Source of the DNA: Escherichia coli
Lineage (GTDB): Bacteria > Pseudomonadota > Gammaproteobacteria > Enterobacterales > Enterobacteriaceae
Assembly: GCF_050320075.1 (NCBI RefSeq)
Contig: NZ_CP190018.1
Direction: 5' to 3' (one strand)
Length of the DNA: 64,000 bases
This document shows, in pieces, positions 28,033 to 43,336 of this stretch (position 1 is the stretch's first letter; every line of letters begins with the position of its first letter). Below the pieces are notes generated by a model. The model was not told where the DNA came from. It saw only the letters and a program-made list of their open reading frames with translations, and did not search any database. The position numbers and the translations under genes were made by a program.

Positions 28033-28298
28033 GTATTAAAAACTATAAACATTAGTGATATTAAACGTATTATCAAGATTCATTAGCTATTACTTTAACC
28101 TTGATATGTTCCTTATTATATTAAAGTCAGAGTAAGTTGCATATATAAATGAATTATGAACCTACTGAGTAAATTTTTATAGATGTGATTAATAAAGGAA
28201 TATCGATAACCGATTAATATTACAACAATTTGATGAGGCTTACATGTCAAAAAGAATCAACAAATAATTATATCAGAAAAAGTTATATTATCTTATTG

Positions 28299-28320
28299 AA
28301 GGCCTCTTTAAAGAGGCCTT
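28299..28320. terminator. Perfect 22-bp palindrome, a possible bidirectional hairpin.
   Basis: AAGGCCTCTTT/AAAGAGGCCTT, within the AT-rich spacer between gspM and the capsule locus. Confidence 0.35.
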
Positions 28321-28710
28321 GCGTGGGCGAAGCGTTCTATGTAACAGTACATGCAACTGGGGTAACTTTTCTTTAAAGGGTATTTTTTCGAACGTGTATT
28401 AGGAAAAGTATTTACATAGAGTGATATTCAGGTTGTAATAAGTTACCTTTGTTACAGTTACGTGGTGTGTGTTTTGTGGTGGATTGTTGGCCTCCTGATT
28501 ATCGTTGTTGTGTTTGTTATCTTAGTGGTCAGGTCTCGTATGCAGGATATGGATGATGATTATTGATAAAAATGTTATCATAAAATTTATAGAGGTATTA
28601 TATTGAATAAGTAAAATATAATGTTGTATTGAACTTTTTACTATTTTTATTGTAAAAAGACCCGCTTTAATTTTATGCATTTTTGAGAGTCTGACCAAAT
28701 AATGGTGTTT

Positions 28711-28908
28711 TCAATATTCCTCTAGCGTCATATTGTTCAGTGATTTATGCGGGTGTTCACAGTTGTATTCTAGCAACCATTTTCCCTTGATTCCCCACAC
28801 TTCATTCAGTATTCTGGGCAGATGAAAATTGAGTGTTTCTGTACGGGATGTCCGGTTAAAACACTCAATGAAAGCGTACTGCGTCAGCTTACTTGGTTGG
28901 ATAAACAT
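28711..28908 (-). pseudogene. Remnant of an IS3-family transposase (C-terminal end of the OrfB / rve integrase core).
   Basis: The translation ...PSKLTQYAFIECFNRTSRTETLNFHLPRILNEVWGIKGKWLLEYNCEHPHKSLNNMTLEEY matches the PGKPxxNxFIESFNGxxRxECLN...YNxxRPHSSL pattern. No upstream catalytic region or inverted repeats were seen. Confidence 0.65.
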
Positions 28909-28980
28909 GCAGTAAAACTGGAGTTTATCCAGTTACAAAAAAAATAATGCGCATTATTAATAACACGCATTAAATATAGA

Positions 28981-41112: not shown

Positions 41113-41132
41113 AAACTCATTCAGCGACAGCG

Positions 41133-42281
41133 TTAGTCTCGGTGATCTTCAATAACAGCCAGCAACAGTTTCAGGGTGCCGAACAGCAGGCAGCACACCA
41201 GTAACCAGCAGGCGATCAAATAAGGGATATTTGGAAAAGACGATTCCTGCGGCAACTGTGGCGAACTGATCACTGACAGCACCTTGAGCTTACGAGCCGC
41301 TTCTACACGGGTCTTTTCAATGGAGGTCAGGGTCAGTTTGTACAGCTCGGTGTTGAACTCTACTTTTGATTTGATTTCTTCAAAATCCACCGCCATACGG
41401 TTTAGCTTGTCACCCTGCGGCGCTGTGATTTTGCTTTTTTCTTCGTCAATTTGTGCCTGCAATGACTGAATCGCATTACGCGCACTCACAACTTGCGGGG
41501 CGTCCTCACGCAGATACGTCAGCAAGTTCCGCAGGTCCGCTTCCATCTGGATCTTCTGGCCCATCAGCGTATTCACTAACGTGCTCGCCGCCTGTGCCTG
41601 TGCCTGTGGATCCAGAACGTTGTTGTTGTCCTGATAAGAGAGCAATTCCGCTTTGCTGGCGTCCAGACGCTGGCGTGCCTTTTCCATCTCCGTTTCTGCA
41701 AAGGCAAGCTGGTCACGCGCGATGCGATGTGACATCTCATTGATAAAGCGCTCTGACTCTTTCAGCACGGTCTGGTTAAACTTAAGCGCAAACTCCGGGC
41801 TAAAACCCTGCGTCTGAATATTCAGTAATCCGGTTTTATCGTCATACGAGACGTTGATACGGTCCTTGTAGTACTTCAGGAAGCCTTCTGCGGTTTCATC
41901 CTTGCTAAGATGATTAAGAAAATCGAGCCCGCTGTGGCTAAACGCTTCACGAAAATTTAGTTGCTTATCCAGCGCCGCCAGCATATCCGGCGAGTTGATG
42001 TACTCTTTCAGATACAACGCATCTTCTGCGGAACTGGGGTTAGAGGCACCCAGAAGCAGACCAAAATTCAGGCTGCCGCTGTTTAAATCATCCGAGCGTT
42101 TAATGGCGACTTTCGACTCGCTCATATAGCGAGGCTGGCTGAAGATAGCCAGATAGATCAGCAGCACCGCCATCGGTGCCAGAATGATGATTTTCGCCAG
42201 GTGTTTTTGGATATCTGCCAGTGAGATGGCAGACAGACGAGCACGCATCCAGGATACGGCAGACTTCACTTTTATCAACAT
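41133..42281 (-). CDS. kpsE: KpsE inner-membrane polysaccharide co-polymerase/adaptor (PCP-3).
   Basis: 382 aa with N- and C-terminal hydrophobic segments and a coiled-coil centre. Confidence 0.9.
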   Translation of the reverse strand: MLIKVKSAVSWMRARLSAISLADIQKHLAKIIILAPMAVLLIYLAIFSQPRYMSESKVAIKRSDDLNSGSLNFGLLLGASNPSSAEDALYLKEYINSPDMLAALDKQLNFREAFSHSGLDFLNHLSKDETAEGFLKYYKDRINVSYDDKTGLLNIQTQGFSPEFALKFNQTVLKESERFINEMSHRIARDQLAFAETEMEKARQRLDASKAELLSYQDNNNVLDPQAQAQAASTLVNTLMGQKIQMEADLRNLLTYLREDAPQVVSARNAIQSLQAQIDEEKSKITAPQGDKLNRMAVDFEEIKSKVEFNTELYKLTLTSIEKTRVEAARKLKVLSVISSPQLPQESSFPNIPYLIACWLLVCCLLFGTLKLLLAVIEDHRD

Positions 42282-42352
42282 GTAACGATTATCAAAGTTT
42301 CAGTGGGGCGCAAACTCAATGAGAGACTAACCTCTCGCACCCCGTTGCTTAA

Positions 42353-43336
42353 TTAGTCGAAAATGCGCACAAGGCCAGTGACTTTATTTGCCTTGTTGGT
42401 CACCAATAACGTTGAGACGCGGTGCTTTTGCATTTTTTCTTCCGCTTCAATGATCATGGTGTCTTCCGGTAGCGTCAGCGGTTCACGTGTCATCATCTGC
42501 GCAGCCGTGGCGGATGTCAGAGAATCCTCTTTTTCCATAAAGCGACGCAGGTCACCGTCGGTGATAATGCCCACTAGCCCACCTTCTGCGTCTTCTACCA
42601 TCACCATTCCCTGGCATCCGCTGGTGATACGTTGAATCACGGTTTTAAATGACGCATCCAGCTGTACCGCAGGAACATCATGCTGCATGACATCAGCAAC
42701 GCGGGTCAGCAGGCGACGACCTAATGAACCGCCCGGGTGATAGCGCGCAAAATCATTCGGCATAAATTTGCGTTGGTGGATCATGGCAATCGCCAGCGCA
42801 TCGCCGATCGCCATCGTCAGCGTGGTAGACGTTGTTGGTGCAAGATTATTCGGGCAGGTTTCATTCGCCATGTGGAGTTCCAGCACGGCATCAGCATTTT
42901 TCGCCAGCGTGGAATTTCCATTATTGGTAATGGCGATAATTCGGTTGCCGAAATTTTTCAGTGAAGGAACTAGCTTGAGGATTTCATCCGTTTCACCGCT
43001 GGCAGAAATAAGGATCAGAAGATCGTAAGGCGTAATCATGCCCAGATCGCCATGGAAAGCTTCTGCAGGATGAATAAAGAAACTAGGCGTACCCGTAGAG
43101 GCCAGCGTCGCTGACATTTTACGACCGACATGCCCTGATTTACCCATTCCCGAAAGAATAACGTGACCTTTACAGTTCATTATCAAATTAAGGACACGCT
43201 GGTACTGCCCGGAATCCAGTTGTTTAGACAAGTTTTGTAATGCTGCGCCTTGTTCTGCCAGAGTCTGGCGAACAGAGGTAATTAGATATGGATCGATAGT
43301 ACTGCTCTGGTCATCAGGTAAATGTCTTTCAGACAT
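42353..43336 (-). CDS. kpsF: KpsF arabinose-5-phosphate isomerase (SIS plus CBS domains).
   Basis: Start placed at MSERHLPDDQSS. The SIS motif is GMGKSGHVGRKMSATLASTG, with tandem CBS domains at the C-terminus. Confidence 0.9.
   Translation of the reverse strand: MSERHLPDDQSSTIDPYLITSVRQTLAEQGAALQNLSKQLDSGQYQRVLNLIMNCKGHVILSGMGKSGHVGRKMSATLASTGTPSFFIHPAEAFHGDLGMITPYDLLILISASGETDEILKLVPSLKNFGNRIIAITNNGNSTLAKNADAVLELHMANETCPNNLAPTTSTTLTMAIGDALAIAMIHQRKFMPNDFARYHPGGSLGRRLLTRVADVMQHDVPAVQLDASFKTVIQRITSGCQGMVMVEDAEGGLVGIITDGDLRRFMEKEDSLTSATAAQMMTREPLTLPEDTMIIEAEEKMQKHRVSTLLVTNKANKVTGLVRIFD

Follow-up and report, generated by a model that had tools for sequence, protein, structure and literature searches.

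An atypical-order group 2 capsule locus of Escherichia coli, most probably KL117, in which kpsMT and region 2 are collinear with region 1

The window, a stretch of 64,000 nucleotides of Escherichia coli DNA (assembly GCF_050320075.1, contig NZ_CP190018.1), contains a capsule locus whose genes all lie on the minus strand. In the direction of transcription, kpsF (42353-43336), kpsE (41133-42281), kpsD (39433-41112), kpsU (38683-39423), kpsC (36659-38686) and kpsS (35392-36624) are followed by a 409-bp spacer, by kpsM and kpsT, and by two region-2 genes, the second of which adjoins yghD/gspM (27496-28032, plus strand), which closes the gsp operon and forms a conserved chromosomal flank. Gene order and strand are concordant in the ORF list, the NCBIfam and Pfam scans, and what RefSeq annotates in a nearly identical ST648 record; gspM was identified from the RefSeq annotation. 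The annotation thus bears out an earlier note on this DNA, which placed all kps genes on the minus strand with region 2 ending beside gspM. All ten genes of the locus are intact, and 22 independent complete genomes, with humans, dogs and chickens as hosts, contain the whole 15.3-kb stretch with an identity of at least 98.8%.

The locus is an E. coli group 2 (2A) kps capsule locus of the atypical-order class. It has the kpsF-E-D-U-C-S order, including kpsF and kpsU, the genes of the KpsM/KpsT ABC transporter (as divergent alleles), the pheV-gsp chromosomal site and an ops/JUMPstart element at the usual distance of about 30 nt 5' of kpsM. It lacks the textbook layout in which region 2 is flanked by regions 1 and 3 and the two sides converge from PR1 and PR3, all genes being on one strand. 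In canonical group 2 loci (K1, K5; ATCC 25922, here L004), gspM is followed by PR3-kpsM-kpsT-region 2 running rightward and then by kpsS...kpsF running leftward, and comparison with ATCC 25922 confirms the departure from canonical order that had been claimed. The two loci nevertheless have in common region 1, the pheV-gsp site, an IS110 remnant and a low-GC region 2. Two other capsule groups were considered and rejected. Group 3 loci (K10, K54, K96) also encode ABC-transporter capsules with KpsMT, KpsED and KpsCS, but their order is kpsD-M-T-E / region 2 / kpsC-S, without kpsF and kpsU (PMC13171606), and the kpsFEDUCS block with both of those genes rules out membership. Group 2B, as defined in the kTYPr paper, has a distinct KpsDE clade and no kpsU (PMC13171606); here kpsU is present and KpsE does not differ from the canonical protein.

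Region 1 is of the canonical group 2A type, with 50% GC. Its KpsE has the same accession as in canonical strains, and KpsC and KpsS are about 98% identical to those of ATCC 25922 up to residue 390. Homology to canonical kpsS stops around codon 390 (about 35451-35458), and the final ~20 codons are specific to the cassette that follows; codon ~390 is the usual region-1/region-2 swap point. At the other end of region 1, the border between kps and pheV is marked by an attachment-site remnant, the 3' 50 nt of the pheV tRNA-Phe gene (44528-44577, minus strand), which match the pheV of L002 exactly; ARAGORN found no complete tRNA in the window. Between this fragment and kpsF lies an IS110-family transposase remnant (44147-44329, minus strand), annotated by RefSeq in L001-L006, L008 and L009. 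The earlier note had listed this remnant with the junctions; the remnant is indeed there, but since canonical loci have it too, it is unrelated to the rearrangement.

Past region 1, and on its strand, comes a low-GC cassette (28038-35450, 31% GC) made up of the kpsS tail, the spacer, JUMPstart/ops, kpsM, kpsT, region 2, a hairpin, an IS3 remnant and a boundary element. Both transporter genes are divergent low-GC alleles (34.1% GC for the pair, versus 41.9% in the canonical pair). KpsM (34203-34982, minus strand) is 74.6% identical in amino acids to the canonical protein and scores 174.9 bits against the NCBIfam KpsM model, versus a cut-off of 300; KpsT (33529-34206, minus strand) contains an ABC_tran domain and is 76% identical to its canonical counterpart. 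The nearest KpsM relatives among species representatives, at 78-79% identity, come from Yokenella, Kluyvera, Phytobacter and Rahnella. The first region-2 gene (30184-33453, minus strand; Pfam, RefSeq) encodes a multidomain glycosyltransferase of 1089 amino acids, with Pfam matches to Glycos_transf_1 (residues 153-261), Capsule_synth (477-636, exactly at threshold) and Glyco_transf_29 (913-966), that is, GT4-type, KpsC/S-like and GT29-like domains. Its RefSeq name is 'glycosyltransferase family 29 protein', and it is a putative capsule polymerase. The second (29013-30179, minus strand; NCBIfam and Pfam scans, RefSeq) encodes a 388-aa TPR-repeat protein.

The spacer between kpsS and kpsM (34983-35391, minus strand, 31% GC) measures 409 bp, in agreement with the roughly 410 bp first estimated. 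Likeness to any known kpsM leader is confined to the roughly 60-90 nt nearest kpsM, which hold the JUMPstart; the distal ~320-350 nt have no homologue in 47 KpsM-encoding loci of other species. The JUMPstart element with ops, the loading site of RfaH, lies at 35010-35046 (minus strand). Its Rfam score (RF01707) of 32.8 bits (E = 2.3e-4) is slightly under the gathering score of 35, compared with 53.6 in L004 and 51.9 in L009, and a scan of 27900-35500 against Rfam returned nothing besides it. The ops site, retained as the earlier note had stated, is an exact 8-mer, GGCGGTAG, at 35014-35021 (minus strand), 31 nt 5' of the kpsM ATG. Canonical loci likewise have ops about 30 nt before kpsM; the position is kept in all collinear loci examined (27-31 nt before kpsM) and in 39 of 47 Enterobacterales loci.

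At the opposite junction, the last position homologous to canonical loci is 28037, 5 bp past the gspM stop. The interval 28033-29012 was described as AT-rich with an IS3-family remnant, and so it proves: it has about 32% GC and contains a 65-aa ORF (28711-28908, minus strand), a C-terminal integrase-core fragment of a transposase (Pfam rve_3, E = 1.5e-11) with 72% amino acid identity to annotated IS3-family transposases. This remnant is 78% identical in nucleotides to an IS3 pseudogene at the matching position in L009, a KL110-type locus. The junction as a whole has no homologue in the 47 KpsM-encoding loci of other species. Alignment across collinear loci delimits a boundary element of about 535 bp adjoining gspM (28033-28567), found in all six fetched collinear loci that retain gspM; 30 other genomes have it at 81-84% identity, and canonical loci are without it. 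Its end coincides exactly with the stop of a conserved ORF of 34 codons (28462-28566, plus strand), which is intact in 6/6 collinear loci and whose product matches no Pfam or NCBIfam family. Between region 2 and the IS3 remnant, a consensus scan picked out a terminator-like hairpin (28945-28972, minus strand) with a 12-bp stem and a T8 run, beginning 41 nt past the stop of the TPR gene; it likely ends the kpsMT/region-2 transcription unit.

The collinear arrangement is already published, in three papers of 2026, as a rare variant, and is no discovery of ours (PMC13171598, PMC13171606, bioRxiv 10.64898/2025.12.15.689991). Gladstone et al. (Nat Microbiol 2026) describe nine group 2 K loci in which region 2 is not enclosed by regions 1 and 3, namely KL110, KL112, KL117, KL134, KL137, KL142, KL144, KL167 and KL169, and leave the junctions, ops, the loss of PR3 and the shared boundary element unanalysed (PMC13171598). 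The order was at first thought possibly novel, with the proviso that characterised loci might share it; in spirit that is the outcome, though the variant is still rare. The present locus is most probably KL117 of Gladstone et al., an assignment made from gene lengths and a presence/absence table. In gene lengths and spacing the locus agrees exactly with entry '3 KL45' in the source file of Extended Data Fig. 4 (PMC13171598), including the 409-bp kpsS-kpsM gap, the 3270-bp glycosyltransferase gene and the 1167-bp TPR gene. The clusters of the 3270-bp and 1167-bp genes are unique to the KL117 column (G2-atypical_order), a column assigned by counting table positions. Like KL117, the locus has region 1 followed directly by kpsMT, region 2 distal, and both of these genes, and we found no structural difference from the KL117 entry. 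The K phenotype is known for 0/9 atypical-order loci in the metadata table of Fig. 5 (PMC13171598), and accessions of matching genomes were not found in the supplements of the kTYPr paper, from which a K-type might have been read.

How is a region 3 without PR3 transcribed? The role of ops and RfaH in the expression of canonical region 2 has been reviewed (PMC8960920). Canonical PR3 adjoins gspM, 741 bp 5' of kpsM, whereas PR3 and its ~740-nt leader are absent from the whole window, and kpsM follows kpsS. On balance, we lean towards RNA polymerase reaching ops by read-through from the region 1 promoter, PR1. Whichever promoter supplies the polymerase, RfaH would load at ops in the spacer and carry transcription across the AT-rich, probably H-NS-bound kpsMT and region 2 to the hairpin at about 28945. 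With read-through, the export and synthesis genes would form one operon of about 15 kb with no independent input from PR3.

The strongest competitor, to which we give appreciable weight though somewhat short of an even chance, is that a new promoter within the 409-bp spacer makes region 3 an autonomous unit, with read-through from region 1 irrelevant. The spacer does contain several sigma-70-like hexamer pairs (for example TTGATA-16-TAAATT at 35236-35209), region 1 mRNA is processed around kpsS (PMC8960920), and expression of kpsMT in KL112 is lower than that of region 1, a level compatible with partial termination or with a weaker promoter of their own (bioRxiv 10.64898/2025.12.15.689991). 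However, the promoter-like hits number 9 against 11 expected in shuffled sequence, the best candidate has no conserved counterpart in the spacer of L008, the KL110-type spacer is just 155 bp long, and no intrinsic terminator is predicted 3' of kpsS in the spacer. An alignment of three spacer lineages neither brought out a shared promoter nor spoke against one. With the hits at chance level and the best candidate unconserved, read-through and an internal promoter are both no more than candidate routes.

A broader version of the read-through scheme can be put forward only tentatively. It would have collinear clusters in general be single PR1-driven operons of about 15 kb, with RfaH recruited in mid-operon and the separate PR3 input (H-NS/SlyA/Fur/FNR) lost; jointly with this, the 535-bp element with its hydrophobic 34-codon ORF would be a functional part of the chassis, perhaps as a type I toxin-like module with a stabilising effect on the cassette, or as a small membrane protein. 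In any event, a locus that has lost PR3 and kept the RfaH site offers a natural test of whether RfaH is picked up by polymerases coming from region 1, and of whether thermoregulation and serum/iron regulation of the synthesis genes survive without PR3.

It seems most improbable that capsule production ended with the loss of PR3, leaving a silent or decaying locus. The missing promoter and the nearby IS remnant speak for such decay, but ten of ten genes are intact, ops is preserved, and the locus is conserved across the 22 genomes from three kinds of host (see above). Moreover, other atypical loci are expressed or capsule-positive where tested: RNA-seq detects kpsMT expression in the collinear KL112 (bioRxiv 10.64898/2025.12.15.689991), and a capsule-positive KL144 isolate is on record (PMC13171598).

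Equally hard to credit is a recent simple inversion, in place, of a canonical kpsMT/region-2 block with IS elements at the breakpoints. The earlier note had called the block inverted, and its orientation relative to region 1 is indeed opposite to the canonical one; the IS3 remnant at the gspM junction, with its relative at the same place in L009, could also be read in that way. Judged from the sequence, however, 'inversion' is right only topologically, and a simple inversion of the canonical block does not stand. The transporter is a divergent one, about 25% different in protein from the canonical alleles, homology breaks cleanly at kpsS codon ~390 and, on the other side, 5 bp past the gspM stop, the block has no inverted repeats at its ends, and the kpsS-side junction is without IS sequence, the IS110 remnant being universal in kps loci. 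The same note proposed that part of the long region-3 promoter and leader had been left behind or lost. Loss is what we observe; a remainder at gspM is excluded, for homology ends just past the gspM stop and the canonical 1.17-kb gspM-side intergenic region has no blastn match anywhere in the window. Finally, identical junctions accompany at least four region-2 types, in several phylogroups. An artefact of assembly or annotation is scarcely conceivable, as the same arrangement occurs in 22 independently assembled complete genomes and the junction in 14 more.

Reuse of the junctions also bears on a suggestion that the order might track with this particular region 2, which does not hold: the same chassis houses at least four different region-2 cassettes. 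L002, L003/L007 and L008, for instance, differ in region 2 but agree in KpsM, in the spacer (97-99% identity) and in the boundary element. Three collinear lineages, found in 36, 31 and 31 complete genomes, bring the collinear loci to 98 or more among the roughly 1,856 complete genomes that carry kps (at least 5%). The KpsM and KpsT proteins of these lineages are 66-71% identical to one another. Because they are no closer mutually than to canonical alleles, a single origin of the collinear order is only a possibility, and the one argument in its favour is the shared boundary element. A donor search of the 47 KpsM-encoding loci of other species gave a best match of 79% in amino acids, and thus no close donor. 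In the 34 of these loci in which kpsS was also captured, the order was canonical and convergent in 33 and collinear in one (L028, a MAG), and therefore the order was not simply imported from a known genus.

The best explanation is that the cassette represents an old alternative chassis rather than the product of a recent inversion in this lineage. The chassis would spread among strains by homologous recombination in the conserved DNA to either side of it (kpsS/region 1 and gsp), and region-2 cassettes would be exchanged inside it, between kpsT and the boundary element. Taken as a whole, we hold with good confidence that this is an atypical-order 2A locus, probably KL117, on an old recombining chassis and transcribed with the help of RfaH and ops. 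The architecture having been published, it adds no new kind of system. There is a practical consequence for capsule typing, however, in that primers or scripts that expect kpsF...kpsM boundaries overlook region 2 in collinear loci.

Two known loci help to place this one. In L005 (DG343-1; '5 KL98' in the Gladstone source file), region 2 likewise lies outside regions 1 and 3 of an atypical group 2 locus, but kpsT abuts kpsS convergently and the canonical PR3, leader and ops are kept beside gspM, with region 2 between ops and kpsM. A closer likeness is KL112 of ST131 clade C, described by Potterill et al. (bioRxiv 10.64898/2025.12.15.689991), in which kpsS, kpsM, kpsT and region 2 are collinear in that order, kpsMT are divergent and low in GC and, where gsp is intact (L010), the same 535-bp boundary element is present. 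It differs in that its kpsMT belong to another lineage (67-71% amino acid identity to those of the window), its region 2 is another one, its spacer is 376 bp long, the 5' half of its JUMPstart is degenerate and gives no Rfam hit, and gsp has been removed in ST131 by an IS1 deletion. The ops 8-mer is nevertheless present in KL112, 27 nt before kpsM, contrary to the preprint's statement that it was lost (bioRxiv 10.64898/2025.12.15.689991).

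The ORF list, the NCBIfam and Pfam scans and the RefSeq annotation of the near-identical ST648 record (NZ_CP008697) concur in the gene layout of the window. The yghD/gspM gene lies on the plus strand at 27496-28032 (ORF list and RefSeq of the near-identical record), followed on the minus strand by a TPR-protein gene (29013-30179), a gene for a 1089-aa multidomain glycosyltransferase (30184-33453), kpsT (33529-34206), kpsM (34203-34982), kpsS (35392-36624), and kpsC, kpsU, kpsD, kpsE and kpsF up to 43336. The collinear layout described in the earlier note, with kpsF-E-D-U-C-S, kpsM-T and region 2 on one strand, is thereby confirmed; region 2 does end beside gspM, and the kpsS-kpsM interval, put at about 410 bp, measures 409 bp. 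The 15.3-kb stretch recurs, at an identity of at least 98.8%, in 22 complete E. coli genomes assembled independently of one another, which rules out an assembly artefact.

This architecture is real, rare and already in print, this very locus included, most probably as KL117. Gladstone et al. (PMC13171598; Nat Microbiol 2026) catalogued nine atypical-order K loci, with region 2 outside regions 1 and 3; they are spread over phylogroups A, B2, D and F and make up under 3.5% of bloodstream isolates. The Extended Data Fig. 4 source file of that survey holds one entry with exactly the gene lengths and spacing of the window (kpsS 1233 bp, gap 409 bp, kpsM 780 bp, kpsT 678 bp, glycosyltransferase 3270 bp, TPR 1167 bp). 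Because the 3270-bp and 1167-bp clusters occur in its presence/absence table only in KL117, flagged G2-atypical_order, the window was assigned to KL117, by gene lengths and table position rather than by sequence alignment. The locus belongs to group 2A; group 2B was rejected because the locus has kpsU and a canonical KpsE, and group 3 was rejected too. The KL112 case in ST131 has been described in detail by Potterill et al. (bioRxiv 10.64898/2025.12.15.689991). A third layout occurs in chicken isolate DG343-1 (NZ_OZ392446.1), which corresponds to '5 KL98' among the entries of the Gladstone source file. Here the canonical region 3 promoter (PR3), leader and ops (the RfaH loading site within JUMPstart) are kept beside gspM; then come a hypothetical gene, GT4 and manC (region 2) and finally kpsM-kpsT converging on kpsS, so that region 2 separates ops from kpsM and no ops lies directly before kpsM.

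In the canonical reference, ATCC 25922 / Seattle 1946, gspM is followed by a 1.17-kb intergenic region and then by kpsM, kpsT and region 2, running rightward and converging on kpsS...kpsF, whereas the kpsMT/region-2 block of the window has the opposite orientation. The earlier interpretation of this difference as an inversion was right only in part. Against their canonical counterparts, window KpsM and KpsT reach 74.6% and 76% identity, and KpsC and KpsS about 98% (KpsS up to residue 390). When the breakpoints were sought by alignment with canonical loci, as the earlier note had proposed, homology ended on the gspM side at 28037, 5 bp past the gspM stop, and the megablast matches to some 1,700 genomes of canonical type ended on the kpsS side at 35451-35458, kpsS codon ~390, from about which residue the KpsS C-termini of the other K loci compared, ATCC 25922 included, diverge too. 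This mapping is new here, if modest. The canonical gspM-kpsM region, which carries PR3 741 bp upstream of kpsM and a long 5' UTR (PMC8960920), has no match in the whole 64-kb window, so that the region 3 promoter and leader, part of which was suspected of having been left behind or lost, were lost. Likeness of the kpsM leader is limited to the last 60-90 nt (JUMPstart) and is closest to Phytobacter and Yokenella, not canonical E. coli. No inverted repeats were found around the block, and the cassette (28038-35450) has 31% GC against 50% in region 1, with 34% in its kpsMT against 42% in canonical kpsMT. The protein divergence, clean homology ends, missing PR3, unlike leader, lack of inverted repeats and GC contrast together argue that the block is not the canonical one simply turned round.

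An exact ops, GGCGGTAG, lies at 35014-35021 (-), 31 nt 5' of the kpsM start, and the upstream JUMPstart half GGTAGC is likewise found. For the JUMPstart/ops element, which had been called intact, the Rfam model scores 35010-35046 at 32.8 bits (E = 2e-4), slightly below its gathering score of 35. The distance from ops to kpsM is 27-31 nt in every collinear locus examined. An ops also precedes the kpsM start, by 22-55 nt, in 39 of 47 Enterobacterales loci of other genera; none was found within 200 nt upstream of kpsM in Chimaeribacter spp. (L039-L041) or Enterobacter pulveris (L052), loci of canonical layout whose KpsM is 65-75% identical to that of the window. The KL112 spacer of MNCRE44 (ST131, L006 10382-10389 (-); also L010) contains GGGGCGGTAGCATAC, which does not differ from the ops region of canonical E. 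coli kps loci, and its ops 8-mer stands 27 nt 5' of kpsM; the 5' half of its JUMPstart is degenerate and the Rfam scan gives no match. The KL112 preprint (bioRxiv 10.64898/2025.12.15.689991) describes both PR3 and ops as lost. Loss of PR3 with retention of ops in all collinear lineages is a modest new observation. A second exact GGCGGTAG lies antisense inside kpsS at 36072-36079 (+), with a corresponding site in every kps locus fetched, co-oriented in canonical loci with the PR3 transcript running into kpsS. Such motifs are expected by chance 1.2 times per window, and the kpsS copy is probably a coincidence kept by coding constraint.

The interest of the locus lies mainly in the possible regulatory consequence of losing PR3 while keeping ops. 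At canonical loci, RfaH is recruited at ops, and transcription depends on it to go on from kpsMT into region 2 (PMC8960920). With PR3 absent, polymerase must reach ops by read-through from PR1, the region 1 promoter, or by starting at a new promoter inside the AT-rich kpsS-kpsM spacer. We lean slightly towards read-through, with the new promoter somewhat less likely. In canonical loci the PR1-driven region 1 transcript is 8 kb long and is processed around kpsS (PMC8960920). The scan for intrinsic terminators predicted none from kpsS to kpsM. Promoter-like hexamers in the spacer are at chance level (9 found, 11 expected) and the best pair is not conserved in the related spacer of L008, a locus with another region 2. 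RNA-seq of KL112, in which kpsMT is expressed, though less strongly than region 1 (bioRxiv 10.64898/2025.12.15.689991), fits both models alike. From either start, RfaH would carry polymerase through about 6 kb of 31%-GC DNA to a 12-bp hairpin and T8 run at 28945-28972, 3' of the last region-2 gene.

The collinear order does not track with this region 2, as had been thought possible. The window's KpsM accession, spacer (97-99% identity) and gspM-side sequence recur with three other region-2 cassettes: GT4, GT29, galE and acyltransferase (XJ6.1); acyltransferase, GT29 and GT2 (TCM3e1); and HAD-type polymerase and acyltransferase (19KM1831). The KL112 type (ST131 and others; spacer 376 bp) and the KL110-like type (Stealth and TagF-like genes; spacer 155 bp) are two more collinear lineages, each distinct in kpsMT alleles and spacer. 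The genome survey that the earlier note had envisaged found the three kpsS-kpsMT junctions in 36, 31 and 31 of 5,426 complete genomes, giving at least 98 collinear loci, a lower bound, among about 1,856 kps-positive genomes; at ~5%, this known variant, though published, is still rare. Between the three lineages, KpsM and KpsT identities (66-71%) are no higher than those to canonical alleles (67-79%). From these comparisons we read collinear kps as a probable old alternative cassette architecture, a reusable chassis that would spread by homologous recombination in conserved flanks, with region 2, alone or with kpsMT, swapped inside it. Few loci outside E. coli share the order: 33 of 34 Enterobacterales species representatives with both kpsM and kpsS captured are convergent, and one MAG is collinear. 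In the latter (L028, MFD01716.bin.3.98, uncultured Gammaproteobacteria, 2268-11442; kpsE-D-C-S ... kpsM-T), a 317-codon ORF separates kpsS from kpsM and ops lies ~55 nt before kpsM. A complete TCM3e1-type collinear locus was also seen on NZ_CP137739.1, a 187.5-kb plasmid of pig strain HNSQ2209 annotated IncHI-type, where it accompanies chromosomal-looking nupG-speC-yqgA-pheV and an integrase beside trh transfer genes; this is either real plasmid capture of the capsule island or a misassembly.

A ~535-bp element (28033-28567) directly 3' of gspM recurs, at 81-84% identity, in each of the six fetched collinear loci whose gspM is intact; canonical loci do not have it. This conserved boundary element, a modest new finding, suggests a single origin of the collinear order. 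Homology within the element ends precisely with the stop codon of an ORF of 34 codons, which is intact (28462-28566 (+); consensus VRVLWWIIGLLIIVVIFAVLVVRSRMQDMDDDY). This ORF has one hydrophobic helix and an acidic tail, no family match in Pfam or NCBIfam, and variable sites distributed 7/3/6 over codon positions; its product may be a small membrane protein or resemble a type I toxin, or the ORF may be non-coding. The junction was correctly described as AT-rich with an IS3 remnant: 28033-29012 has ~32% GC, and a 65-codon ORF within it encodes an integrase-core fragment (rve_3) 72% identical to annotated IS3-family transposases. KL117 and KL110-like loci have a diverged IS3-family remnant in common at the same relative place, which hints that an ancestor of the collinear cassettes may have carried an IS3 element at its distal end. 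The pseudogene in the KL110-like locus L009 (21565-22623) is longer than the 198-bp remnant of the window and 78% identical to 28650-28906 over 258 nt.

Region 2 encodes one large protein and the TPR protein, the former with GT4-type, KpsC/S-like Capsule_synth (exactly at threshold) and GT29-like domains in Pfam. GT99/GT107-like domains have been linked to Kdo-containing polymers (kTYPr paper, PMC13171606). By analogy, and speculatively, region 2 may make a heteropolymer that contains Kdo and draws on CMP-Kdo from KpsF and KpsU.

At the other end, RefSeq annotation agrees with the IS110 remnant as described. A 50-nt 3' fragment of tRNA-Phe lies at 44528-44577, and ARAGORN finds no whole tRNA in the window. 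Past this pheV fragment (44671-47996 on), the near-identical ST648 record annotates DUF4942, DUF957, a CbtA/YeeU toxin-antitoxin and an antirestriction protein, so that another island parts the kps locus from an intact pheV, which is not the case in XJ6.1 or 19KM1831.
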